A DNA stretch of 25,229 nucleotides from Moniliella sp. 'wahieum' (lineage: Eukaryota), in the NCBI GenBank assembly GCA_003971905.1, contig RSEE01000138.1:124001-149229 (forward strand). Reading direction: 5' to 3'. Under the pieces are notes generated by a model. That model made no database searches. It was not told the origin of the DNA and saw nothing but the letters and a program-made list of their open reading frames with translations. Within the stretch, counting starts at the first letter, position 1; each line of letters starts with the position of its first letter. A program made the translations under genes and the position numbers. Shown here one piece after another: positions 1-23,800 of the stretch.

Positions 1-1546
1 GCGGCCATGCCCCATCACTAGCATCATCGATCATCAGGAAAATTCGGCCCATTGAAGCCGTCGGACAGACACAGCAGTACGTGGGTGCGATTTATGGCAG
101 CACACAGGCGGGTCTCAGGGGTTCGGGGCGGCTCTTTCGGAGATGCGAGGCAAGGCGGTCATCGGAAGAGGACAGTCGGGGTGGCGCACAGTAAGTACTT
201 ACTCGGTACTACTACCAGTAGTACTCCTTGTCGCATAATACGCGGTATTCCCAGCTGTCTGTCGCGGTTGCACAGGACCGGATAGGCTGCGCAGCAACCC
301 ATCCAGGCCGCGTCACCCGCGTTAATTGTGCACTCGTAGCAAGAAAGAGATCTGGTGCGACGCCGCTCTTCTCTCAAAAAGGCCGCCACCATCCGTCGCA
401 GGCGGTGGAGGGTCGATCGTCGATGTACGCTGGCCGTCGTTGCGCCCCTTGCCCCATGCCCCCTCTCCGGCCAGCCAACCACGGGCACAGTCTGCAGACG
501 TCGAAGGATCCTCCGGGGTGGGAACAAGTGCGGGGAGAAGGCAGCGGGCAGCGTCGTCGGACGGGCACTCTACTCCCTTCGGGCCTCGGCAGCGGCGTGG
601 CCACTGATGGCGAATCCACGTCCCGCGGCAGTAGCGAGGCAACTACGTCCACCATTTTCCCCCACCCTCTCGCGACGCCTCTTGCCCATCGGCGCGCGAC
701 CTTCGCCCTTCGCAGTGCCATCCTCCTCCTCCTCGGCGTCGCCTGCATCTTCATCCGTCTCGTGGGCTTTGGACCGTGATCTTGATTCCTTTACTGGCGC
801 AATATCCCAACCCGCCGGAGCGTCCTCAACCGTGGTGCTTCCCGACCCCCTTCCTTTTCCTGGGTTCCCTACCCTACTCCCTCCCTCCTCCCCGATCTCC
901 CTGCTGCCCATCACCAGGCGCCCACTGCTCTCCTGATGGCTGGGCCAGGGCCCCCACCAAGAACCCAAGCCGACCATGGGACCGCACCCTCGTTGGGTCA
1001 AGGGCAGGGCGGCCGTGGCTATGGCCAGCCCACTGCGACAAGCAGTTCCTATCTGCACTCGCTCGTTTCCCATCGTCATCCCTACTTCCCCACTTGGACT
1101 GTTTCCCCCCCTCTCCACCAGCTTCAACCGGCAGGCGCGACTCGGCCGCCCCACCGCTCTTCCTCCCAGTCCCGCATCCGGCCCGTCTTGCCCAGACGAA
1201 CGCGGGTAGGCCGATTGGATTTGACCCGCGCCTCTGCCCTGGTCCGGCAGCAGCGATCCACATCCACTGCGGTTAATACATCCGCCTACCCACGCTCTCC
1301 TGTTCCGCGTGAGTCGGCTAGGCAGGGCGAGTAGGGCTCCCACGATCAACAACCAGGGCGTGCCTAGTATCTGTCATCCTCCCCCCTCTCCCCGCTTTTC
1401 CCTTCCTACGCTTCCCTACCAGCAAGATATCACACCTATACGAGAGAGTGGCAGAGAGAGGTGAATGCATAGTACAGTGACTAGGGTGGAGTCCCGATTA
1501 GTGCGTCTAGGTACCTGGGACGGCAGCGGCCCAGGGCACAGACGAC

Positions 1547-4500
1547 CTAGAACCCAATCTCCTGCTTATCCTTGGCTTGTTTGCGTGCGGCGCCGCGGGC
1601 AAACTTATCGTTGCGCAAGGAGCGTTTTGTGTGGGGTCCATCGCGACCGGGCGTGAGCGGTCGGAGGGACCGAACGGCACACTCGATCCGACCCAACTTG
1701 TACCCACGGAACCGACCGTTACGATGCATCGTTTTGCGCTTTGGCAATGCCGCCGTCTTGTCAAACAAGACCAGCGTCGGGGCGCGCCACCGCGCGCGAC
1801 CCGCCCCGCACGGTGCAGCAGATCCATCGTGCTCATCGAATGGCGCGCCGGCGTGTCCAGCTCGGCCCGCGTCGCCGCATTCGAGTCGGGGATAACGAGG
1901 TGCGTGACCAGCGGCGAAAAGTCAATCCCACGCGCCAACATCGAAGTGGTGATGAGCACACGTGGGTAGTTGGGCGCGGGCGTGGCAGCGTCAGCATCCG
2001 AAGCGTCGGCGGCAGGATCGGTCACGCCTCTGGTTTTTGAGTTGCTACCGGTACAGGGAACCGGAGCGAACGTTGTTCCAAGCGCTTGGCCATGGCGCGG
2101 GCCGCGACGACCGTCTTGCTCCTCCGCTCTGGCACGATCTCCACGGGCTGAGGCAAGCCCGAGCCAAGAAGCCTGCGTTGTTCCCTGCGTTTACGACGGG
2201 CGGCCTCCTTGGCCGGCTGGGCGGCAAGCTTATCGTCGTGCCGCTTGTAGGCGCGGAGAATCTTGTCGGTCGAGACGCCGCCCCGGGTAGCTGCTTCCAG
2301 CTCCAGGTCTTGGAGATCTCGTCCAGGTCGTAGTCTTTGTACGAAAACTCTTCGTCGTCTTCCTCCTGCTCCAACTCCTCCACTTGGTCTTCCTCCAGCC
2401 CCTCGGTGGCAGCTAGTTGTTCTTCGTGCCCTTCTCCAGCCACTGTGCCGTCTTCGGCCGAAAGCGACTCCTCATCGGACGCGAGGGACTGGCGGGGAGG
2501 CGGTAATAGCTTACGAGGATCCAGCACAAACCCATTAAGATGGTTGTTGCTCGTTAGGCTACGGTTTTTGGATGTGCTGGTCAAAGTGGTGTTACTGAAA
2601 GAGGAGCCAAGTTAGTAGGGTGGCCAGAACCGCGAGCCAAGGCAACAGCGAGACCGGGTAGGCAAGCCAGGGAAACCAAGACAAGAGACGTACAGAATTC
2701 CAACACGGTCCAACAGTTTGCTATAGTTGCGCACGGCGATTCGACGGTCGCAAAACACCACCACCCGCGATCGATCGGTAGGGTCAGCAAGCAACGCCTC
2801 GCGCACCTCACGCGCAAATGCAAACTGCCGCGTCGGCCCAACATTGGCATACTTGACCCGCAACGAAGTGGGCAACTGGTGCAGATGCTTGGAAAGGAGG
2901 AAAGTCGTGTCCGGGAACCGGTTGGTCAATTCCTTCTTCAGCCCCGCTCCTACCGACGCGGTGACATGGATCAGGTCGGCAGGAACAAGGGGCTTCGGCG
3001 TGGCCTTGTCCTTCCATGCCTTGAGCCGGTCGTCGTACACGGTTCGTAGGATCACCTTGGTGGGAATGTAGTGATCGTGGTCCCACAACACATCTGCCTC
3101 GTCACAGACCACGGCCCGTACGGCATCGAGCGAAATGTACTGTTGCCGAATGTCGCGCTCCACGTGCCTTTCCAGCATGCGTGCTGCCAAAAAGTCTTCG
3201 CCGAGCATGTACTGGTTGTGAAGGGCAAGGTAACGCGCATTGCGCACCGACAACGGCGTCGTCAGGTCCAACAACCGCTCGGGCGTCGTGACCAGCACAT
3301 CGATCTTCCGCACCTCATCCCACTTGCCACGCGACATGAGTCCAATGTCGTGCCGCAGGACCTTGCGCCAACTGTTCCGGCTGGTGCACACGGTACGCAA
3401 CCTTTCAATGTGCGTCAAGGCCTTGACCGATGTCTCGATCTGACGAGCGAGTTCACGTCGGAGCAAGGATGATGCTCCGTGGCCGGATGAGGTAGGGGAA
3501 TTCCGGCTTGGAAGGCGGAGTCCAGGCCTTGACTTCTTCCTTGCGCACGTGCAAGCGTCGATAGCGTCTGTACGCTGCGGCGCGGGTGCTTGCGCTCCCC
3601 TGGGAGCGCTCGAGGTGGAGAAATTTCTCAAAACTCTTCCAACTCCTCCCCCGAGAGCCAGTGGCGAGGATTGGCAATCGGCTTGCCGATCGCGCATCAA
3701 CATGGCCTCGTTCGCCTCCTTGTCTTCGTACCACGCTTCCTCGTCCTCCTCCTCCGGATCGTCATATTCATCCAGCTCCTTGGTCGCCTCCGAGGCAAAG
3801 TGAGCAGCACGAGCATTCGCACGCGCTTCCGCATCCCGATGCTCACCATATCCCGTTGGAGATCTTCCTGCTTCGTAGCAACCAGGCGTTCGAGGGCACA
3901 AGGTAAGCAAACGTCTGCCTCCGCCGTCTCGCCAGCAAGCAGCGTCGAGCTGCCGGGAGCCTTGGGGAACAGGAAGCCCTGCGCACCCTGAAACAGACGA
4001 GCACGGGTGCTGCGGGCAGTCAGAGTGTGTTCGTTTCGGTTGATGAGAAAGTGTTGGAAGGCCAGGCGCTGGATCGAGGTGGGCGCCAGGGGGCCTCTGC
4101 TCCGGCAGGATATCGAGACGGAGCGCGTTTGCGCGAACTCAGCCCTGGGCCAACAACTTGCGAAAGCCGGTCGGACCGGCAGGCGGCGGAAGATGTGGCG
4201 GAGCGGGCGAGCCCCGCGGGTCGTTCTTCACGTGAGCGCGACGAGGGGCGACTGGACCACTCGACCATGGTTGATCCGGCGCGCACCGGCTCGTGCGTTG
4301 TCGGCGCCAATGCCGGGCAGCGGCGGTACTCGGGGGCGGTGCCGGTGGCGGGACTGAGCAGACGGGTGGGCTTTTGGAGGGCGGGCGGAGGCGGGTGCGG
4401 CGGGCGCGGGCGCGGTGGGCGCGGGCCGAGGAGGGAGAAGGCGGCAGGAGTGGGTAAGGGTGGGCGCGCGGGCACCGCAATGGCCAGCGGGAGGCCCAGC

Positions 4501-4554: not shown

Positions 4555-5762
4555 GGACGCAACGACGCTGGTGGCCGGGAAGGCTGGCCAGCCCAGTGGC
4601 GGCGCTTCTTCTGGCCATCCACCACAAATTATGCCCGCATCGGTGCAACCCACCCCGCCTCGCACCCGTTCCGCCCGGTTCCGCTCCAACCCTACCCGCA
4701 CGCCCAGCAGTGCCCCAGGGAAGCAGGCGGAACTCAAGCGCTGCTGGTAGGCACTGCCACCCCTCCTTCTTTCCTCTTCTTTTCCTCCGTCTGGGTTCAC
4801 CCGTCAACCCACCCGCTCCTGCCTTCCGTCTACCCCCATACGATATTTGGCCCTCTGCTTTAACGTGCTCTCGCGCCATTAGGGGGGGGGAAGCAAGGAT
4901 AAAAGATGTGACACAGTGGGATGAGCCACAATGCTTCGGACCTGCTGGCTACATATACACACCCGTTTGTAGTCCCTCTAGGAGTACTGCGTGTCGGGAT
5001 CAGACCCACTTTATCACCGTTTGATCACCCAATTGACTGGTCCCTGATTTGTTCTAGACCCTGTTTTCCTCCTTTGACTATGATCCCCCCGTGTGATCCA
5101 GCTCGCATGTTCTCTTTTTCTCCAAGGCATATATACCTCGCCCTCTTTCCACTCGATGAATATGATCCTCTCATCCTTTCCCCATCTCCATCTCCTGTTA
5201 CTGCAGTATTGACAGGATAAGTTGGCGCTGAGCAAATGCCACAGATGAGTGAGTCGGAGGGTGAAACTGATGGTCAAGCGCGCTGGTTCATTTCAGCGGG
5301 GATCGCGGGGACACTACTATATGATTCGAGTCGACAACGGACTCCTGAGGGTTGTCTTGGTGGGCTGATGGACTTTCCACCACCGGCGCACCAGAGCGCG
5401 ACACCAGTAGCTCAAGAGTGGCGTCACTCGCCGGGTCTTCTCCTGCAGAAAAAGAAGAGATTAATTTGCAAATAGTACTATGGGTTCAGCCACGGAATAG
5501 CGATTGAGGTCTACTGGCACATATGCTCTTTTGCTCCACTCCCAAGTTGAATCGAACCGTATCTTCGACAAGTCCCCCTAGAACCGGGATAGCTGACTGG
5601 CTCATCCGGCATGGGCTGCGTGCTGGCGCCAACGCAAGTAGGAAACCGGTGGGGTGAAGGATGCTTGGTGTCTGTTGTGCAAAAAGCGGATTCAGAGCGT
5701 GCGTGCCGAAGGTGGACCTTGCCCCTGTAAAAACAACAGGGGATACGTCCCACGCTATCAAG

Positions 5763-5809
5763 ATTGAGACTTGAGACTTGAGAAGAATTGAGAATTGAGA
5801 TCTGAGATC
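5763..5809. repeat. Degenerate 7-nt tandem repeat (TTGAGAC/TTGAGAA/CTGAGAT)
   Basis: attgagac ttgagac ttgagaa gaa ttgagaa ttgagat ctgagat. Confidence 0.75.
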
Positions 5810-6461
5810 AAAGGGCCGTACGTATCGGGTCGCACTTGCTCGTTCTGCGGGGCATGGCAGGAGGTATGTAGATGGGGGTGTTCACAACCTGGCTTGGCAA
5901 ACCCGAATGCTTGGCAAAATAAGCCTGTGGGAAAAGAAATGGCTGCTATGCTCGGTCCATTCGTACAGCGACGACGCGTACCTAGCCACTGGGCTTGCAA
6001 ACAGCGGACGTGTGGCGCCAGTGTTGTGCCGCTGGTGACGTCACGCGGGGGGGCGTCGCCTCAGAGCGTGGGCATGCGCCAGGCGACCATGTGACCATGT
6101 GCCCCGCCCGAGGCACCGCGACGCGCACTGGGCTGGTGCCTGCACCCGACTCGGTGCCGTGCGGGAGCGAGTCACCGGCGCGACGGGGGCAGCACCCCGC
6201 GCTGCTTAGGGTTGGCTGCCGCGGGCACAGTGGCCCGGTGCGCGCTCTGGCTCGGAGCGCCGGGCGTCTGACGCGGTACACCGCAGACAACCCTACTGTA
6301 CCCTGCTGCACAGCCCGTGTGCGGGGGTAATCGATAATCGTACTCGAGACTCCACCGCCGCCATCCTTCTTTGCTATGCGCACCAGCACCTCACCACCTC
6401 CATCCGTCGCTCCGTCTCCCACCATCACCACCACCACCACCACCTCCACCACCACCTCGCC

Positions 6462-7750: not shown

Positions 7751-8041
7751 TCACGACGTGCAGGGCTGGCGTCACCGTGGTGCTTGGCGATCGATGTATG
7801 AACCATGATGCAGGATGGTCTGCCATCTCTTCGCCTCCTGGTTCCTTGGGCCAGCACAGAACGGTAACGAGTGGCATGGAACGGTGGGTCATAGTGCGCT
7901 TCCGCTGCTCAAAAATGCGTCCGGGAGGATCTCTTAAGTTGCACATATATCATTGGCAGAGCTTAAGGCTGGGACAGGGGAAACGCTACGTCTAAACCGA
8001 ACCGTTCATCTTGCGGGAATTGCTTGGAAGCGCCATCAAGG

Positions 8042-8650
8042 TTAAGGAACCGGGGGGATCGCCAGGATATCAGGACCCTCTGGTTCTCGCCATCCGGTCC
8101 CGTACCCTAGGTAGCGCGTGTGGACACGGATGAACGTGGTTGACATCCGAGCGAGGAACCAGTTCCATTGAGACTTAGTAGCCAAATCCTTCCAATGCGC
8201 AAACAACTTGCCAGCTGTCTTGGTGCCGTAGTATCCTCACGCGTCGTCAAAACCAAAGGGGAAACGGCTCTTGAGTGAGTCTCTGGTACTTGGCGTTCTT
8301 GTCGCATAACTGCTTGTTTCAGCAGCCGAAGCAGCTCCTTCTCCCGGCATTCCAAAGGCGTCGCAGTGCTCTCATGTACCACTCTCCGGTACACGCTCTG
8401 CGCCTCCTGCGATCCCGTGTCGCGCAGCGTGTGGTCCACCTCCATTACGGATCCTCCGATTGCTCCAGTCCCCATCACACGGTAGTCGGGCCGCTGTGCC
8501 CTCCGTCTGCGCCTCGTCTTATCCTCTTCCTCCACAGTAGGTTCGTTGTGGATGCGGGTGTCGGGGATGGAGCGCACGAGCTGGAGAATGGGCTCCCGCA
8601 CTGATGCCTCATGTAACGCGCACTAAACTTGGCCTGGGAGCGGGTGCACA
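8042..8650 (-). mobile_element. 5'-truncated non-LTR retrotransposon remnant encoding the C-terminal restriction-like endonuclease (RLE; CRE/R2-group, fungal Cnl1/MoTeR-like architecture)
   Basis: Stitched translation: LCTRSQAKFSAR.HEA.VREPILQLVRSIPDTRIHNEPTV...RPDYRVMG...EVDHTL...DKNAKYQRLTQEPF.PLVLTT.GYYGTKTAGKLFAHWKDLATKSQWNWFLARMSTTFIRV. This reproduces the RLE motif order RH(D/E)-EP-RPD-D-KxxKY-FxPLV. No reverse transcriptase is present upstream. Confidence 0.8.
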
Positions 8651-8692
8651 ACGGTGGCTAAGGTGGTGATGGGGGAACGGTGGCTAAGGTGG
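8650..8692. repeat. 17-nt direct duplication AACGGTGGCTAAGGTGG (8650-8666 and 8676-8692)
   Basis: Exact copies, located at the 5' truncation junction of the RLE remnant. Confidence 0.9.
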
Positions 8693-8696
8693 CCAG

Positions 8697-8770
8697 CAAG
8701 CACCAAGCACCAAGCACCAAGCACCAAGCACCAAGCACCAAGCACCAAGCACCAAGCACCAAGCACCAAG
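8697..8770. repeat. Perfect heptanucleotide microsatellite (CACCAAG)10
   Basis: Ten exact units at 8701-8770, preceded by a partial CAAG. Confidence 0.97.
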
Positions 8771-9771
8771 CTGGGACGAAGCCCCAGCTGACCGGGCCGT
8801 AGGCCGGTGGTCTCCTCGTATGAACTAAAAAATCTCAGGCCCGATAGCGGGGGACGGGGTCAAACTCTTGACGCGGGTCGAAATACATGAAGGAGGGTGT
8901 GACGGGCCGCGTTGGATCCGAGAGGGTCCTGTACAAGCTAAGTTCCCCCTGTTCTGTTGCACAGGCACAGTAGAGCGCGTTCCGCAGTCCATCCAAGTGT
9001 GGTAATGGTTGGTTAAATTAGTAGGCTACCGTGGCCCGAGGGGCGATGCATCCGCGCAACAAGATCAGTAGTCGCCCCCCACTCTCAAGTCCAAGTCGGG
9101 TGGGCTAGGTACGGCCACCAACTTCCCAGGAACTTTTCGACTATTGTCGCCTCTGTCCCCGTTTTGTTTTCCTCTCGCTGTTGTGCCTGCGGTAACCAAA
9201 CCCTCTTTTGACATCCCTTCCTTTCTACACCCCACCCTGTTGTATCCGTTTTCCCCTTTGACCTAATTGCCTGTACCCCTGGTTGATGGGGATCCTTTCC
9301 TCCACCTTCAATTCTCATCTCCACTCTCGTCCCCTCCCACCTATCCTGTCCGACTCCTTCCCGTTTTCCACCCAATTGGTCCAGTACAGGCAGCTTCCTC
9401 TTGTTAGCGTCGGCCATCTCCTCCGACCTCGTCCTCCAGCAATCCGTCAGTACAGTCGGGCGAGCCCTCCTTTGGCCGCGTCGATTTCCAATCTCAGTTG
9501 AGGCAGTGTCTGTCCGCCGCTGCCTCCTCCCCTCCCTAAGTCCCGGAGGCTTCAGACACGTTACTACGGCCCAAGCCGGGCCGACACAGCCTTGCCACAC
9601 GAGCAGCCGCTCCACCAAAGGAATCTCCTCGTCCCTAGCGCTGCTCGGATCCACTACCTAGCCCAAGCCCGAACCTACCGTGAGTCGACCGCGACCGTCT
9701 CCCAAGGGATTTATTGTACCCATAAACCCGGGCGAGTCCCCTGGCGGGGCCCGCCCCATATGACAGAGGGA

Positions 9772-13656: not shown

Positions 13657-16600
13657 TTAATGCGCCGAGGCGCGGCCCAGGGCCGCCTTGGCATCGGCCG
13701 TGACCTTGGGCAGAGGCAAGACGGTCCGAGGGGCGTGCTCTTCGCCTTGCTCGTGCGCGCTGGACACGGGCGTGCCCACGGCGCGCGTCGGCTTGGGCAA
13801 GAACCCAACGGCAGTGAGCCAGGCGAGGTACAGGCCCAGCGTGTCGGTCGTCATGCCGGCGACAACGCCGTCGGCCGGCGCTTCGTGGGCGGCGGTGAGG
13901 ATGCGCAGCGTGTTGCGGTCGTCGAGCGAAGGCGACTTGGTCGACGTGGGCAAGTCGTCCAGGACAAAGTGCAGGAGCGGGAACAGGGCATTGTCCTCGT
14001 CGTTGGAGCCGGTGGCGCTGCTGCTGCGCAAGACGTGTTCCTCGAGATGCTTGCGCCAGGTCATGTACTCTTCGCGCGCGACAGGCCAGCCATAGAGCGC
14101 GAGCGAGCCCAGCACCAGGTCGTACGTCACCTTCGGGTGGCCCTCGACGTGGAACACGGGCGTCGGCGTGAAGGGCTGGCCGAGCGCCGAGGCCGACTGC
14201 AGCACGCGCTCGGCGGGCAGCGTAATGTCCAGCGCAGCGAGCGCCGTGATGCGCGCCACATGGTCCACGGGCACCATGTTGACCAGGTTGCGGATCTCAG
14301 CGTACGCGCCGAGCTGCGCACACCCCTTGATCAGCCGCACCAGGAAATCGTCCGTGTTGCTCGTGCCCGTCTGCGCGTCGCCGACCACGTACCCGGGACG
14401 CACGATCCCGGCCCGAGCGCCGCGCGCGACGGCCGCCATGACCAGCTGCTCCGCCACCCACTTCGACTGCCCGTACCCCGTCTTGAGCCCCGTCCGGCTC
14501 CCGCCCAGGTCGTCGCTCTCCGGCACCCCGGCGCCCTGCCCCGACGACGCGAGCGAGTCGCTCAGATCCGTATAGTAGCTCGTGTCCAGCGCCGACGTCG
14601 ACGAGACAAACGTCAGCGTCTTGGCCTGCCCCGTGCCGGCCAGCTGCAGGAGCGCTTGCGTGCTCAGCACATTCGCCGCGCGCAGCCGCTGGTACGGGTA
14701 CACCCAGTGCACCTGCGTCAAAACAACAACAACCACACGTACCGGTCAGTACACTCCATCCAATCCAATCCACCCCGCTCGCCAGGCAAAGTCCACGTAC
14801 CAAAGCGCCATTGTGGATGATCACATCCACCTCCTTGGCCAGCCGGTCCCACGTCGGCTTGTCGACGCCCAGCCGTTCCTTTTCGAGGTCGCCTACGACC
14901 GCCTCCACCCGGCCAGCGGACACCCAGGACGGGTCCCACACGCCGCGGTTGGTGCCTGCGGCCTGGAGACGCTGCAGGCCGGCCTCGGTGTCCTTGGCCC
15001 GCACGTGGGCCAAGACGCGCTTGACGCACGTCCGCTTCCGCAGCAAGTCGGCCAACACGTAGCTGCCCAAAAAGCCCGTCGCACCCGTCAAGAGCACGGT
15101 GAGCTGCTCGGTCGCCGGCGGGCGGGCGGGTAGACTTCGGGCAAGTCGGCAACGAGCGGAGCCAGGTCCGAAGCATAGTCCGTCTCGTCGGCCGCGGCCA
15201 CCGCCTCGGCCTCCTTGGCCCCAGGCACCGACAAGCCCAACGCACCGTCCTGCGCGCGGATCGTGTCGATGGCCTGGGCGAGGCCAGCGACCGTCGGGTG
15301 GTCAAACACGACGCCCAAGGGCACGTTGATGACGAATGCCTTGCGCAGCTCAAACACCAAGCGCGTAGCCAAGATCGAATGGCCACCCAGGTCAAAGAAA
15401 CTCTCGTCCATCGGCACGGGCTGCGCAGGCCAGGCAAGAGCTGCGTCCACAGCTGCGCCACGGTCGTTTCCGTCGCACTCTGCGGCCGCGCATGGGCGGC
15501 GTGCGAATGATGCGAACGGTGCGTCGCGCCGCGCGGCATTGGCCAGCGCCCGTCGGGGAAGGGCAGTGCAGGCTTGTCAATCTTGCCGTTCGGGTTGAGC
15601 GGCATTTTGCTCATGGGCACAAAGTGCGTCGGCACGCTGTACGACGGCAGTTTGCGCTTGAGAAACTCGCGAATGTCCTTGATCAGCAGCCGGTACTTTT
15701 TCACGGCGCGCACCAGTGCCACATCGCGCGCCGACGACGCTCCGGTGGACGCCGCACCACCACCAGCAGCTTCCTCCCCGACGCGGCCGAGCTCAGCTCT
15801 TCTTCAAACTCGACCGCGCCAGCACCGGGAACAAAGTACGACACTAGCACCTTGTCCTCGTTCTTGTCGCGCCGCACCAGCGTCACATTCTCCCGCACAT
15901 GCGGGTGGCGCGACAGGTGCGTGTCAATCTCCCCGAGCTCGATGCGGAAACCACGAATCTTCACCTGGTCGTCTGCGCGGCCGGTGCACTCAACCGTGCC
16001 GTCGGGCAGGAACGACCCAAGTCGCCCGTGCGGTACATCCGGTCCCGTACGCCCTTCCAAAACTGCCCAGCCGGCGTGCCCTGCAGCGTATCGGGCCACT
16101 GCAGATCCGTCGCCAAAAAGTTCGGCACAAACTTTTCCAAACTCATCTCGGCCGGGCCTAGGTAGCCCTCGGCCAAGCCGCCTGAGCGAACGTAAATCTC
16201 ACCCACCTCGCCCACGGCCGTGGTGACCGTGCGGTCGTTCCGGTTGACCACGAGCAGCTGCACATCAATCATGCCCTGTCCGGCGGGCATAATGTCCTTC
16301 TGGCTGCGCAGAAACGCCGCGTCGGCCGTGACGCTCGGCAGGGCAAAGTAGGACACGGCACGCTGCGTCTCCGTGGTGCCGTACATGTTGATGATTGTCA
16401 CATTGGCCGCGAGCGCTTGGAGACGGGTGCAGTCGCGCTTGGTCAGCACGTCGCCAACGAAAAACGCATTCTTCAGCGTCGGGATCGACGCCACCGCCTG
16501 CGCCGACAAGAGCTGGCCCATGGCCGGCGTCAGGTGGGTGACCGTAGCCTTGGTGGCCGCCATCCACTCGGCCAGGCGGCCGGGCGTACCAATGTCCTCG

Positions 16601-18349
16601 GCCGTGGGAATGTGCAGCTCAGCACCAAAAAACAGCGGCGTAAACATGTCGCGCTGAATGGGGTCATGCGCAATGCCCGACAACATGGTGAACCGGTCCT
16701 GCTCGCTCAGGCCAAACCGTTGGCCCATCCAGGGGAAAAAGTGGGTCAGGCTGTGGTGCCGACCACGGACACCTTTGGGGATACCCGTCGAACCCGAGGT
16801 GAAGCTCAACGTGCCCACCGAGTCGGGCCCAAGCACGATCCCCGTGCTCTGGGTCGCCAGCGCTTGCGAGCTGGCCAACACGTCCGTCGGGTCCGTCTCG
16901 GACGCGGCGCCACCCAAGACGACCCCCTCGGGCGTAAGCGCCAGCGCCGGCACCTCCACACGCAAGTCCAACTCGGTTTGAATGTAGTTGCGCACGGTGG
17001 GCGCCAAGCGACCAGCCTTGGCCAGCACCACCAGCGCACGCGGCTTTGCTACCTGGAGGTAAATGTTTTGTCGGCTGGCTGGGTAGGCAGGGTCAATCAC
17101 TGAAAACGTGCGCCGGCCTTGAGCGTGCCCAGCACGGCCACCACCAAGTCCACGCCCCGGTGGGCATAGACCGTGACCACTTCTTCGCGCTGCACGCCGT
17201 GCGCGAGCAAGTGGTGGGCCAACACGTTCGGCGCGGTCCAGCTCGCCATAGCTCACTTCACGCACGCTTGCCGCTGGCGCACCCAGCTCGCCTGACTTGT
17301 GGCCGTCGACACACTTTCCACCAGACAGCGTCGGTCGGTGAACTGGGCCGCGTTGCGCTCGAAAATCGACGTAATCGAGCCCTGGAACCCACACCAGTCC
17401 AAATCCGTGCGCGGGTCGGGCAAAATCTTGGCCTCGGCCGGCGTACGCAGCGCAATCGTGCCCACCACCGAGGGGGATCGGCAGCGGCAATGCTCACCAC
17501 ATGCAGCAGCTGCTGGACCAGGAAGGACATGCGCGCTTGGCTGAACAGCAGCGCATTGTAGCTCAGGTGCAGCGCAATGTCAGGCACGAGCGACTGGCGC
17601 ATGGCGCTCGCGGTGCCAAAGGTGGCGCCGTCGGGGTCGGGGTGACGCTGACGTTGCGCCGTCGTCTTGCTCCGTGCCGGGCACGGGGGCGGGCGCTGGA
17701 GGGCGTGACAAAGATGGTCAGGTCGGGTGGGGTGGGGCGGTGGTCTGGATAAATTCGCGCCCAGCACGGCCACTGGTCTCGTCCAAAAAGCGCACACGGA
17801 ACAGGGGCGTGCGCAGCGTGTCGCCCGCGGCCTGGCGGTCGGCCTCGAGGCGCTGGGCCAGCACGTCAAAGGGCAGATTGTCGGCGGCGGCCTCGGCCTC
17901 GACGGCCTGGATGCGGCGGACGACCTGCCAGAAGGCATCGCCGGGCTCGATGGGCACGCGGAGGATGAGGGGGCTGGCGTCGAGCGGGCTGCTGGAGCCA
18001 ATGACGAGGTCCGTGTCGCCGTGTAGCGGTGGAGCAGGACGGCAAAGGCGGCGAGGAGGATGTGGAAGGCGGTGGGGCCGGCGTCCTGGTCGTTGTCGTC
18101 GTCCTGGTGGTCGTCGTCGTCGTCGTCCGAGGGGGATGCGTGGGGCTCGTCGTGCTCGGTGTAGAGGGCGAGGCGGGCGATGGCGTTGCGGGAGCGGCGG
18201 TCGAGGCGGGTGGTGGTGAGGGCGGTGACGACCTGGGCGGCGGCGGGGCGGGGTAGTCGGTGGGGAGCGCGATGGGGGAGGCTGCGCAGACGCTCCACCC
18301 AGCGGTCCAGCCGGGCGGCGTCGGCGGTGGGGGTGGGGGGGGTCGGCAT
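13657..18349 (-). CDS. LYS2: L-2-aminoadipate reductase large subunit (NRPS-like: ADA/condensation-like, A, PCP, R domains); 1 intron, many apparent indel frameshifts
   Basis: N-terminal [45 protein letters not shown]-domain [108 protein letters not shown]; reductase [47 protein letters not shown]; stop TAA at 13657. Confidence 0.97.
14713..14800 (-). other. Spliceosomal intron (88 nt) in LYS2
   Basis: GTACGT...TACTGAC...GACGCAG. Splicing restores the conserved HNGAL|VHWVYPY. Confidence 0.95.
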
Positions 18350-18687
18350 GGGCTGGGGGGGTACAGGGTGGGGGGCAGAGACGGGGGAGAATATAAGCTG
18401 CGCTGTCGCTCGTATTCAGCCGCCGCACGGATGCGTTCCACCGGAAAAAAAAAAGTCCACGGCGGAGAAAGCACCTTTCCTGCTCAATGTTCACGTGTGC
18501 GTGGCTGAGCTAACAACCCTAGTGTCCCGGGGGGCAGGATTACACACAGGCGCCGTGCTGGTCGCGCCGCCCTAGCTGCCTGTGCGGTGGGTTGCCTACG
18601 ACCAGTGGGCACGAATATAACAATCGTCCTGCCTTCGCGCGCCCCTCTGCTCCGCCTGCGCCTTGCCCCTGCCTGTCCGTCCAGGCC

Positions 18688-18951
18688 ATGTCCACCATGC
18701 CCACCACCACCACCACTCTCTTCACCACCACCACCACACCATCCTCACCACCACCACCACCACCAGAGTATGTACGCCCCCCCCCCCCCCCCCCCTCCCA
18801 TCCCCACCTTAGACCAGTCCACCACAACTAACCCCCCTCCCCCCAGTATGGGCTCTGCCCCAGCTGCCACAAGGACTCCCTCTTTGCCATCCACCCCGGC
18901 ACCAAGTGCGAGGTGTGCACCGAGTGCGGATACGTCATCCGCTACCTCTAG
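18688..18951 (+). CDS. 62-aa two-exon microprotein: Thr/Pro-rich N-terminus plus TFIIB-type zinc ribbon (exons 18688-18771, 18847-18951)
   Basis: gccATG start; intron GTACGC...AACTAAC (18826-18832)...CCCCAG. Spliced product: MSTMPTTTTTLFTTTTTPSSPPPPPPEY|YGLCPSCHKDSLFAIHPGTKCEVCTECGYVIRYL*. 31 of 34 exon-2 sense codons end in G/C. An AATATAA element lies ~70 nt upstream. Confidence 0.75.
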
Positions 18952-20268
18952 CCGCCCCTTCTTCGTCCCCATCCAGCGCGCAGGTAGGAGAACCGCCTCT
19001 CTTACCCCCATCTGCATCCCCTTGTTGCTGCCCCCATCCCCCCACACGATTGCATCTCTCCTGTCCATGACACGCGCTGGCCTGGATAACTCCCTAGTCG
19101 CGCGTTTCTCAGTCGAACAGACACGCCTGTCCAACGGCCATTATCATCGGTCATCCCCATCACGTAAACCGCCACTCCAGCTCCACACTGGCCCTGCACT
19201 CTCTGCGCCATCTTGCTGCTCACACAACATCACATCTCACAGATATCGCCGTATTGATGTAGTGAGTACGGTGTATGGGTGCGCAGGCGGCGCGAGATAC
19301 TCTACTGTACCCGTAGGGCTAGCACGATACATCCTCCACGACGTGCGTTGGCGGGTGTCCTACCCTGCTCAGCCTCGCCCACCGAGAGAGCTTACCCCGC
19401 ACATGGGAACCGTCGCTACGACGCTGGTGTGCCGCTGGCCGTGGTGCCCCTTCGCGCGCAAACAGACAATCCCTCCGCAGACGAAGACACGGGACCCGAG
19501 AGCTGCCGTTGAGTTACAGCGCTGGCCGCTCCGTCAATCTGCTTCGGGGCGAGCACCGGCGCCATAATGCACACCACTACGTCTCGTCAGCTCGAATCGA
19601 ATCCGTGTGTACGTTTTATAACAGGTAAAATGAGGGCATGAGCGTGGGGCTGCTTCATTTCGCTGCTCTCTTCTCGGCGCCTGCGGCCGCGGACGAAGCA
19701 GCGTTACGGTATGGGGTCGTGGCCTGGCCCCATTCCTAGGACGCATCCGACAAGTCCAACGGGGCAGTGCGGCACCGTACCTTGATTTCTTTACCCTCTC
19801 TGGCCTGCAGAGAGCGGCGAGCTCCCCGCGCTCACCTTTGTGCTGTGTTGGCAAACGAAAAACCCCGTCCACGAACCGTGAATTGAAGCGCAAAACCAGG
19901 GTTTGGGCACGATACGCCTGCTCTCCCCCCGGGCCCACTCTTCTCACCGGTGCTCTCGCCTGGCACACCGTCGTTCGCGTTCTCTTAAGTTCTCGTTCTC
20001 GTTTTCGTTTCGTTCTCTTTCTCTGTCACACGCGTACAGTCGGGCACAGGAGGGCAAGACTCCCGAGACAGAACTGGATCCACGTCAAGGCCGAACCCCA
20101 CCCTATCTCTTCCCTGATGCCGCCTGTACTACATTTAATCTGCGGGTCTCGCGGTACACGCACAGGCCATCACGTTAGGGTGCCAATCATGGCATGAACG
20201 TTGTTCGCGCTGCGCCTCAGACGAGGTCTGGGCCACCGCACCGAGGCGTTGAGGCCTGTGGCTTGGGA

Positions 20269-20325
20269 TTGAAGCTTGGGGCTTGAAGCTTGGGGCTTGG
20301 AAGCTTGGGGCTTGAAGCTTGGGGG
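20269..20325. repeat. Tandem repeat of 14-nt unit GAAGCTTGGGGCTT (~4 copies, each with a HindIII palindrome)
   Basis: gaagcttggggctt gaagcttggggcttg gaagcttggggctt gaagcttggggg. Confidence 0.92.
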
Positions 20326-20818
20326 AACAAGAACAACCGGGCTGGGTGGGCACACTCTACTAATTGAGTCCGTTCAGGCGGGTGACGGACGGACGGACAG
20401 ACGAAAGGGGACGCCGGCCTTGTTTCCCCCCGCTTCGGGAGGGGGCGCATGGGGAATCAGGGGTGGGGTGTGAGCGGTACGTTGGTATTGGGTGGTCGTG
20501 GAAAATGAGCGATGGGATCCGTAAGGCGTTTTTGGTTTGGAGGGCAAGACGAGTCACTGAGTTGATTGGAAGCTATGTGGATCGGGCTTTAGGCGGTAGG
20601 CGGTAGGAGAGAGGTAAGGCGCGATGATGGGGTATGTGTATCAACATGCATGGGACGTGCGCAGGGGATGGGGGGGGTAGGCAGGACACGCCAACACAGC
20701 GGCCCCCACGTGATGGATCTGACCAAGGGGGGAGGCCAGCAGACCAGGAGACCAGGAAACCCGGAGAACAGGAGAGTAGGAAAGCAGGGGGGCAGGCCCA
20801 GACGCGTCGATGGCCTCG

Positions 20819-23800
20819 CTACACGGGCTCGGCAGGGCGGTAGAGAATGGTGGTGACGTACTTGCCGCGGTAGCGCGTGGTGGTCGAGACGCTGAGCACG
20901 CCGCGCTTGATGGACGAGGCGGCGAGGTGATGGAGCACGGCATGGTTCGGAGCGGGCAAGACCGAGTTATCGTCCACGCGCACCAGGTCCGCTGGCGCCC
21001 CGGCCGCACTCACGCCCACGCCCACACCCACACCCACGCCCAAGACCGCATTGAGAATCACCTTCTCCAACTGGCGCGGCAAGGGCGGTGGACCGCAGTC
21101 GTCCGTGGCCGAAGCCTGTGCGACGACCGAGGTGACTTGCGCCGCCGCTTCGTCCGGCGGCACACCAGCGGCCACAGCGGCCGCTTCGGCATCCGCCTCC
21201 GCTTGCGCTTCCCGCTCCTCCGCTTCCTCCACCCACCGCGGCACCTCGCTCGACCACTCCCACTCGGCCTCCGACTGCGGCAGAAGCGGCGTCCAGTCGT
21301 ACGGCTGCGTCGGAACCGACTTGATTGCACTGCCATCATGCGCCAGCGCCCCCACCACTCCATGCCCGGCCCCCGTCCTGTTCCATCCCGAGCTTGCTCC
21401 TTCTTGTCCCCAGGCGGGGATGGGGGGCGGACTGGGCCCAGCGGCGCTGGCGCGCCTCTTGCTCTGCCTCTGCCGCTGCCTCCTCCTCTGCCTCCCCTCC
21501 CCCGCCCCCTCCCCCCTCGCCCTTCAGCGAGGCGACCGTCTCTGCTCGGGGGGTATCGTGCCACTGCGCACCGTGGCGGTAGCGGTAGCGGTAGAGGGAA
21601 CAGTGGATGTAGAGGCAGTGGTAGAGGCAGTGGTAGTGTAGTGACCGAGGCAGAGGGGGTGAGGGCGGCGGGCGTACCGCCTTGCGGCGAGTCAACATGG
21701 ACAAAGTTGACCAAGTGCCCTCGCCATCGACGGCCGTCGGAAGCGCATGCGACACCCGCCACCGATCGTCCACAATAAACTTTAACCGATGCGTACCGGG
21801 CGGCAAACGGACCGTTGTCGACCACGTTTCTGTCGGCGCCTTCGACCTCGCCTCGGACGCCGACTCGGACTCGCGCGCGGTCCTGGAGGGAATCGCGGCA
21901 TCGCCTCCCTCGGCCTCGTTCTGCTCCCGCTCGCCGATGCGGCCTGGGCCTCGACCCACAGCAGGCACGCGCCGGTGCAGGTGCAACGGAATCTTGGCAT
22001 GCCAATCCTCAGCAAACGTGCCTGTCACATACACGCGTTTAGCTCCGCTGCTCGTATCCGCGGAGCCGTCTGGGCCGAACCGGATCCGGCACTTGTCCCT
22101 GCCCCCCCGGACCAAGTCAGACGCACACTGACCAACCGGTCCCCCGCAGCCCCAGCCCCGGCGGAAGACGACTTGGGCGAGGGCGCATGGTGGTGGTGGT
22201 GATGGTGCCGATGCCGTCGACGGAGGGAGTGTACGTGGTGCGCACGCGCCGTCGAAGGCGTACTGCGCGCATGCTCTTCGCGCTGTTTGGACTTGGCCTC
22301 AGCCGGCGCGGCAGCCACAGACGGTACAGGCGGTGAAGGCGGTACGGACGCTTCAGGCGGTACAGGCGGGGCGGTTAGGCCCAGCCCCGTGGTGGCGCGC
22401 ATGGGCGACGGTGCATGTGCATGTGCGCCGGACGGGAGGCGAGGCGTCATGCCCAACCCCAACCCCGGTCGAGGCGGCGCGGCAGTGGGCGTGCGGTCGA
22501 GCTCGGACGCTGCCCAGCTGGCCACCGCTGGTCCAGCGGATGCAACGGCATGGCCAACGGTCGCGCCCGCGGCGTCGGCGTACGCGACCGGTCCCGTCGA
22601 TCAGGACTGGCACTGGGCACCCCCATCCCCATCCCCATACCCGTGCTGCCCGGGTCAGCTGGGGCGGGCGCAGCGGGCTCAGCAGCGATTGGGGTGAGGA
22701 CAGAGGGTGTGTGGGTGCGGGCTCGCTGGGATCGTTGGGCTCGCTAGCTTGGGGACGCGCTGGGGGGGGCAAAACGGGCGCAGCAAGAGAAGTGGAAGTG
22801 GAGGAGGATGAGGAAGAGGGGAATGGATCTGAGGAAACGGGTACTCGTATGTTCGGCGTCCGGCGAGGCGATCCAGAGCCCCGGCGGGACCGCTGGGGGT
22901 CGTGGTGGCTGCTGCACCTGGGGAGGGGCGCGTGCGCGTCGGCCAGAAGTGTTCTGCCTCGGGTCCCGGTTCGGTTCGGGCCTCGGTCCCCGCCTCGGCG
23001 TCGGGGGTGGGACGAGGATGGAGGCCGAGGTGGTGAGCACGAGGCGAGGCAGGCACGACGACGACGCGGAAGCCAGCCCGCCAGCCAGCTCCGCGACGCA
23101 CATCGGTCCATCCAGTTTGGTAGGCCGAGGGACGGGAGACGACGCTGGAGGAGCACCGGAGGCGGGGAGGAGCAGGCGGCGAGATCGCAGCGGGGATGGG
23201 TGGTCAGGAAACTCGGTAGGAATGCGCAGGTAGGAAGGCACTGGAGCAGGCTGTCCAGCCCTTCGGCCTCGCCTCAGCGTCCGCCCCGGTGCGGTAGGCG
23301 TGCCGCCCGTGCCGCTCCGCCTCGACGTTGCCGCGTGAGGGCGGCCCGAGCTCGGCCTGCGCCGGCGTAGGCGCATACGACGCGTGCGGCGAGCCGGCTC
23401 GCGACGACATTCGCGAGGACAGGCCGACGGACGAAATGGCAGAGACCGAAGCGGAGGCCGACGCGGACGCTGATGCTGAGCCGGCCGACGCGACGAGGCC
23501 GAGGCCGGGCGGGGGTGGGTGGCTGCGTGCACGCGCGGGGGCGAGCGCGGCGAGGGCGCTCGAGTCGTACACGCCCAAGGGTGCGGAGGGTGTGGGCGGC
23601 GGCGAGGGCGCGGGGCGGGCGGCGGCGGCGCCGATGGCGGCGTGTGGGTCGGAGGGGAAGTGGGGGTAGGGGCGGGTGGCGAGTGGGCCTGGCTGGGCGG
23701 GCGGTGTGGCTGAGCGGGCGCTCGGGGGGCAGCGGCGGCGGCGGCGGCGGCGCGGCGTGGGAGAGCCGCGGCGGCTGCGGGGCGGCGGCGGCTGAGCCGG

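Follow-up and report, generated by a model that had tools for sequence, protein, structure and literature searches.

The B-ribbon, the N-terminal zinc ribbon of the TFIIB family (TFIIB, TFB, Brf1 and Rrn7), places four cysteines within about 30 residues in the arrangement C-P-x-C...C-x2-C-G-x-V, with a spacer of 15–17 residues, contacts the dock domain of an RNA polymerase and stands at the head of factors of 300–600 residues in which it is followed by a B-reader, a linker and cyclin folds. Rpb12 (ABC10-alpha), of about 70 residues, carries one C4 ribbon behind a low-complexity N terminus, docks onto a large complex and has a conserved C-terminal tail. LysW, an amino-group carrier of about 55 residues in prokaryotic lysine synthesis through alpha-aminoadipate, has an N-terminal ribbon and an acidic tail whose terminal glutamate carries the substrate. 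A survey of small proteins in Methanosarcina mazei describes CxxC-x17-CxxC proteins with little beyond a TFIIB-like cysteine motif, and its authors merely suggest a role in transcription for them (PMC12704099). Our literature searches turned up no description of a fungal zinc-ribbon microprotein gene. Here we analyze a candidate for such a gene next to LYS2, the gene for alpha-aminoadipate reductase, in Moniliella sp. 'wahieum'. It lies in a stretch of 25,229 nucleotides (nt) of contig RSEE01000138.1 (positions 124,001 to 149,229 of the forward strand), referred to as the window, within which all positions below are counted.

Judged from its sequence, the candidate (Table 1) is probably a real, unannotated two-exon nuclear gene for a zinc-ribbon microprotein in a GC-rich fungus of filamentous type, transcribed divergently from LYS2. 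The GC content of the window is 0.52–0.77 per kilobase (kb), and its gene structure is eukaryotic. The predicted product of about 60 residues (62 amino acids) consists of a leader followed by a C-terminal four-cysteine ribbon. The frame that encodes the ribbon contains no ATG, and the predicted intron carries an in-frame TAA (18829–18831), so the ribbon can be translated only from a spliced mRNA; the length of the intron preserves the frame. The original prediction had reported the gene as missing from the track of open reading frames (ORFs), and it is indeed absent from the ORF list down to 25 amino acids. The 75-nt intron with an ACTAAC branch point that was said to join a Thr/Pro leader to the ribbon exon was found with all of its elements in place, as was the head-to-head arrangement with LYS2, which lies on the opposite strand with 339 nt from ATG to ATG.

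Table 1. Coordinates of the candidate ribbon gene and its immediate surroundings in the window
Feature	Position	Strand	Description
Exon 1	18688..18771	+	ATG (18688–18690) and 27 codons; Thr/Pro-rich low-complexity leader; reads MSTMPTTTTTLFTTTTTPSSPPPPPPEY
Intron (predicted)	18772..18846	+	75 nt; donor GTACGC, C23 run, branch ACTAAC, acceptor CAG
Exon 2	18847..18951	+	34 codons and TAG (18949–18951); zinc ribbon; reads YGLCPSCHKDSLFAIHPGTKCEVCTECGYVIRYL
Zinc-ribbon core	18856..18927	+	CPSC-x16-CTEC-G-Y-V
Alternative donor GTATGT	18768..18773	+	begins 4 nt before the in-frame donor GTACGC
Divergent promoter region common with LYS2	18350..18687	.	338 nt
LYS2 5' part, divergent neighbor (context only)	17721..18349	-	

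The composition of exon 2 carries much of the case for a gene. Scored against a codon table of 1,276 codons from four stretches of the window whose coding nature Pfam supports, the ribbon frame gave a log-odds of +6.7 bits and was the only positive one among the six frames; the two remaining sense frames scored −21.8 and −15.2 bits, and the three antisense frames −9.2, −29.2 and −8.6 bits. In-frame windows taken from known genes score 10.8 ± 9.0 bits on average, which places exon 2 at the 21st percentile, a low rank among genes that is due to its five rare cysteine codons. Of 1,405 stop-free windows in the 1.85 kb that follow the exon, none scored as high, and of 29,899 windows drawn from the entire stretch, its real genes among them, 8.9% did. 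The GC content at codon positions 1, 2 and 3 of exon 2 is 0.50, 0.47 and 0.91, with C at 0.74 of the third positions; third-position GC in the four known coding stretches is 0.65–0.90. None of 3,290 stop-free control windows of 34 codons equaled exon 2 in third-position GC, in its contrast with positions 1 and 2 or in third-position C (0 of 1,406 in 18952–20800, 0 of 193 in 18350–18687, 0 of 625 in 4950–5980 and 0 of 1,066 in 7995–9630, the last two stretches being taken as non-coding solely for their lack of a long Pfam-matching ORF). Even among in-frame windows of real genes the contrast is attained by just 1.2% of 1,144, and the binomial probability lies between 8.5e-5 and 1.1e-3. In a sliding view the third-position signal sets in at the acceptor and ceases at the stop codon, and the intron shows no periodicity. 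Exon 2 thus looks truly coding and has the properties of a coding exon of this genome. The strength of its codon bias suggests substantial expression.

The predicted intron has the form expected of a fungal intron, for which we asked for a GT donor, a CTRAY branch point 10–40 nt before a YAG acceptor and a length of about 50–100 nt; it reads GTACGC (or GTATGT)..ACTAAC..CAG over 75 (or 79) nt. The branch point at 18827–18832 lies 15 nt before the acceptor CAG at 18844–18846, which contains the sole AG ahead of the ribbon. The hexamer ACTAAC occurs once per strand in the 25-kb window, and the minus-strand copy sits in the intron of a helicase gene. A strict search for GT..ACTAAC..YAG returned only the ribbon-gene intron and this helicase-gene intron, with three matches for the two introns because the former has two possible donors. 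First-order Markov simulations (200 runs) gave a mean of 0.46 such architectures and a maximum of 4. Two introns of the window could be verified, one in LYS2 (14710–14797, minus strand; donor GTACGT, branch CTGAC) and one in the DEAD/Helicase_C gene (2595–2693, minus strand; GTACGT...ACTAAC...CAG). Since both use GTACGT, the donor GTACGC of the ribbon gene is one base off the local style.

The cysteine codons of exon 2 begin at 18856, 18865, 18907, 18916 and 18925 and encode residues 4, 7, 21, 24 and 27 of the exon. The CPxC-x15..17-CxxCGxV arrangement that the original prediction had cited as that of the TFIIB/Brf1/Rrn7 ribbon is present as CPSC-x16-CTECGYV, the sole such pattern in the window, and even the looser CxxC-x12-20-CxxC occurs in an open frame only once across all six frames. 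A comparison set of 15 other fungal loci (88.5 kb) likewise holds the looser pattern once, there in an unrelated hydrophobic stretch. Against Pfam, residues 4–32 matched positions 3–30 of the 43-position profile Zn_Ribbon_TF (PF08271) with 17.7 bits and an E-value of 0.0026, short of the curated gathering cutoff of 29 bits; Zn_ribbon_LapB gave an E-value of 0.0021 through a 9-residue local match, which is likewise below its curated cutoff. As a control, 149 of the 174 other stop-to-stop ORFs of 30–60 amino acids were compared with Pfam. A single one had a match at E ≤ 0.01, and this was a genuine LYS2 fragment, leaving 0 of 148 non-genic ORFs. The only end-to-end alignment among solved structures was with 1pft, the N-terminal domain of Pyrococcus furiosus TFB (residues 3–32, E 0.073), which ends in an identical CGYVI, and the top NCBIfam match was the archaeal TFB model PRK00423 (residues 4–32, E 0.22). 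In the ESM Atlas the sequence fell near generic small zinc-ribbon-like clusters at a cosine of 0.91–0.92 with 111–137 of 256 shared features, below the level of members of one family.

The nearest look-alike is consistently the B-ribbon, which gives the best full-length alignment in each of the libraries Pfam, PDB and NCBIfam, all three with scores below threshold. The likeness lies in the four cysteines, the CPxC...CxxCGxV(I/L) arrangement and the length of about 30 residues. It amounts to a resemblance, and membership of the TFIIB type is not established: of the hidden, spliced, TFIIB-type ribbon gene that was originally proposed, the spliced small zinc-ribbon gene is supported by the periodicity of its codons and by intron signals and a ribbon pattern that are both unique, and the PF08271 score falls short of securing the family label. 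The ribbon is C-terminal in a protein of 62 residues, whereas that of the TFIIB-family factors is N-terminal, and there is an extra cysteine at position 21 and a histidine where the family usually has an aspartate. Neither a B-reader nor a linker nor cyclin folds come after the ribbon. The absence of cyclin folds, already noted in the original prediction, is borne out by the stop codon 7 codons after the last cysteine and by the non-coding character of the DNA beyond it. Pfam domains were absent from the tested ORFs in 18587–20606 and from 20641–21009, so with neither a coding signal nor a Pfam match downstream of the stop there are no cyclin folds to be added. Scanning the window for Rfam families and tRNAs gave no match.

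Other small ribbon proteins fit less well. Rpb12 (ABC10-alpha) is similar in size and in having a low-complexity leader before a single C4 ribbon; the 8 Pfam families that matched at E ≤ 10 do not include its own, and the product here ends 7 residues past the last cysteine, without the tail. LysW shares with the candidate a small zinc-ribbon protein's tie to the alpha-aminoadipate pathway, the gene here adjoining LYS2. The C terminus of the candidate reads ...GYVIRYL, and no LysW model appeared at E ≤ 10 in Pfam or NCBIfam, although the HMMER filters drop most matches above about 0.1. The segment IHPGTKCEVCTECGY resembles the linker and knuckle of a C2H2 finger, H-T-G-x-K-P-x-x-C-x-x-C-G, but the finger pattern C-x2-4-C-x12-H-x3-5-H does not occur; histidines stand 1 and 9 residues after Cys-7 and none follows Cys-27, and zf-H2C2_2 matched with an E-value of 2.8. 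The M. mazei proteins, comparable by the description of their motif, differ in being archaeal and intron-less and in their x17 spacing (PMC12704099). Considered as a whole, the candidate reads as a stand-alone small zinc-ribbon protein that looks most like a B-ribbon.

Several observations weigh against a functional gene, and they concern its relatives, its predicted fold and its first exon. A phmmer search of 1.84 billion representative proteins gave no relative of the ribbon. Six matches had E-values below 1e-3, each made up of 5–16 stretches, and the two of the six that were inspected are arrays of C2H2 fingers; the top PDB matches likewise consisted of repeated stretches, with independent E-values of 72–180 for single stretches. 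The low E-values of the C2H2-type matches arise because repeats are summed, and both these and the top PDB matches are explained by the likeness of IHPGTKCEVCTECGY to a C2H2 linker and first knuckle. With a query of 34 amino acids the search detects only relatives above roughly 50% identity, which means that no protein more than about 50% identical to the ribbon is on record in this collection. The product of the window itself is not annotated there, because no match fell below 1e-10. Gene callers that do not model splicing would not predict the ribbon protein anyway.

The original prediction had named synteny next to LYS2 in relatives as a check. The LYS2 N terminus anchored 15 metagenome loci at 36–54% identity, and in 12 of them the upstream sequence exceeds 1.3 kb. 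A ribbon-like ORF stood upstream of LYS2 in none of the 15, and no tblastn match was better than E 0.8. The 499 upstream ORFs from 9 of the loci had no match anywhere in the window, and no synteny was seen. Given their distance and lack of synteny, these loci say little and do not count against the gene. The ribbon gene appears to be lineage-restricted. Single-sequence AlphaFold2 modeling of exon 2 alone was also of low confidence, with a mean predicted local distance difference test score (pLDDT) of 53.7 and a predicted template-modeling score (pTM) of 0.22.

Exon 1 is the weakest part of the gene model. It consists largely of a (CCA)21 microsatellite (18701–18765, 9% indels). Its first 19 codons (18688–18744) score −0.8 bits and its tail (18745–18771, SPPPPPPEY) −8.5 bits; the tail has six CCA codons, and among the 84 proline codons used for training CCA is the rarest, with 9. 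In another phase, 18747–18767 reads TTTTTTR with preferred ACC codons, scores +1.5 bits and ends exactly at the alternative donor GTATGT. Against the fungal donor consensus, GTATGT fits at 5 of 6 positions and GTACGC at 4 of 6. This stronger donor puts the ribbon out of frame with ATG 18688 and joins it in frame solely from the ACC-phase reading, which has no ATG and would require a one-base correction around 18740–18747. On the sequence as assembled, splicing at GTATGT instead enters a long open frame (18509–19567). The second donor, the microsatellite and the frameshifts of LYS2 had gone unmentioned in the original prediction.

Those frameshifts bear on how far the assembly can be trusted here. 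LYS2 was identified on the minus strand by AMP-binding and NAD_binding_4 matches and by tblastn with intact metagenome LYS2 ORFs, to which it is 57–82% identical over conserved parts. It starts with an ATG at 18349, and over 13789–18349 tblastn recovers it as nine pieces whose frame alternates. At 18017/18020, 16003/16027 and 15414/15426 the pieces overlap at the DNA as well as the protein level, so that an intron does not fit and these breaks are frameshifts; near 18021, a short G run apparently lacks one G. The breaks reflect either assembly indels or a pseudogene, and the high third-position GC and the lack of in-frame stops within the pieces favor assembly error, in which case single-base indels occur roughly once per kb. 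Because of these several frameshifts, the frames near the CCA microsatellite and the C23 homopolymer that follows it within the intron (18777–18799) are not fully trustworthy, and the length of both runs is likely to be wrong in an assembly prone to errors and to differ between strains. There are two readings, splicing at GTACGC on a correct sequence or splicing at GTATGT with a miscount in the CCA run; both lead to a leader joined to the ribbon. The former is favored, as it needs no correction of the sequence.

The same observations raise the possibility that the locus is a relic of a formerly working gene or a non-productive exon that is transcribed to this day, in which GTATGT is spliced, the ribbon is out of frame and never made and the codon bias is a leftover. 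The closer fit of GTATGT to the fungal consensus, the tendency of the exon 1 microsatellite to change frame and the failure to find homologues all agree with it. In both verified introns, however, the donor is of the GTACG type, and an intact frame of 34 codons with strong periodicity is not what one would expect after long decay. The frame derived from GTATGT has a strongly negative codon score and no homologue over 18848–19564, and assembly indels could account for the phase shift in the CCA run. We regard a relic as unlikely, if the most credible of the alternatives.

Alternatively, the ribbon could be a chance open frame in the LYS2 promoter or intergenic DNA, with an accidental CxxC...CxxC in GC-rich sequence. 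By rough estimate a few tenths of such a pattern are expected per 25 kb, the one dissimilar match in the 88.5 kb of other loci has the look of chance, and every family match is under its curated cutoff with no relatives found. Chance would leave unexplained why a third-position GC of 0.91, unmatched in the control windows, is confined to the exon, and why a unique ACTAAC, an acceptor and a donor stand exactly before it together with an in-frame ATG. The failure of all 148 non-genic ORFs to match Pfam at E ≤ 0.01 also argues against it, and we consider an accident of this kind quite unlikely.

The gene might instead be a single unspliced exon of about 87 codons, in which miscounts in the C23 run and in C5–C6 runs create the TAA and the frame breaks. 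LYS2 does carry single-base frameshifts, at least one of them in a short homopolymer, and the 75-nt stretch is mostly C runs. Two separate errors would be required, however, and the stretch lacks codon periodicity and has complete and otherwise unique splice signals, which makes an unspliced gene highly improbable. It is more improbable still that the true product is the long frame 18509–19567 with the ribbon as a coincidence, for although it is open over 352 codons and can be entered in frame from ATG 18688 through GTATGT, or from ATG 18848, it scores −21.8 or −15.2 bits over exon 2, contains no downstream stretch that attains the exon 2 score, matches no Pfam family, has homologues over 18848–19564 at E ≤ 0.01 among none of 2,910 word-sharing candidates (proteins of 131–419 amino acids) and belongs to a kind of open frame that is common at 60–67% GC.

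If the spliced ribbon gene is real, transcription would start from the TATAA 68 nt upstream of its ATG, and the 75-nt intron would then be removed. Translation would yield a disordered Thr/Pro-rich leader with the ribbon at its C terminus, in which Cys-4, Cys-7, Cys-24 and Cys-27 of exon 2 would hold one zinc ion and Cys-21 would be a spare or alternative ligand. The protein may act as a small zinc-dependent docking module or regulator on a larger protein or nucleic acid machine, as B-ribbons and other ribbons that stand alone do, and not as an enzyme; a docking role is proposed because a ribbon without any other domain could hardly be catalytic and ribbons of this size are docking modules. 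RNA polymerase is the most attractive, though unproven, candidate partner. The more specific proposal, that a detached ribbon of the TFIIB/Brf1/Rrn7 type sits in the polymerase dock and tunes or blocks assembly of the pre-initiation complex while being expressed from the divergent promoter that it shares with LYS2, strikes us as improbable. Archaeal factor paralogues inhibit polymerase by a similar logic. Were it true, a polymerase decoy would couple amino acid status to transcription capacity, as a natural dominant-negative fragment of a general factor.

If real, the locus would clearly exemplify a functional-looking microprotein gene overlooked by standard annotation, being short, obtaining its start codon through splicing and lying in a frameshifted assembly. 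We put it forward as a well-supported prediction. A lone TFIIB-like ribbon beside an amino acid biosynthesis gene raises the question of whether it docks on the transcription machinery and is co-regulated with LYS2, and confinement to one lineage would bear on the origin of small domain-only genes.

The promoter region between the two genes contains, besides an A10 run at 18446–18455, the putative functional motifs TATAA at 18392–18396 and 18616–18620 (the latter being the one upstream of the ribbon-gene ATG), CACGTG at 18493–18498 and TCCACCGGA at 18437–18445. The last fits TCCRNYGGA, a Lys14 consensus; this pattern is not enriched in the window, with 3 matches against 1.88 expected. Co-regulation of the ribbon gene with LYS2 from the 338-nt divergent promoter is plausible. 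The LYS2 N terminus has an acidic, Asp-rich low-complexity insertion (18060–18130, minus strand), which falls where identity to relatives is lowest (35–36% over the first ~100 residues).

On the other side of the ribbon gene, a 1.85-kb gap (18952–20800) reaches to the stop codon (20819) of a convergent AMPK-beta gene of the Gal83/Sip2 type, an unusually long distance for convergent fungal genes. The gap holds a 14-nt tandem repeat of 4.6 copies (20261–20324) and a TCGTTC repeat (19971–20023). The AMPK-beta gene itself (20822–22298, minus strand) is split into two overlapping frames, with AMPKBI in 20822–21523 and a truncated AMPK1_CBM match (profile positions 33–75 of 85) in 21339–22298, an arrangement that would fit an intron or additional frameshifts. 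Of the metagenome relatives, the two closest (L001 and L004, 78–82% identical in the A-domain) have in positions 1–3700 no counterpart of the ribbon gene or of the AMPK-beta gene, and local synteny is not conserved. A protein kinase fragment lies upstream of LYS2 in both, and L004 carries in addition a small ORF whose CW..RD.YY.C motif is reminiscent of Cox6B/Coa6-type proteins.

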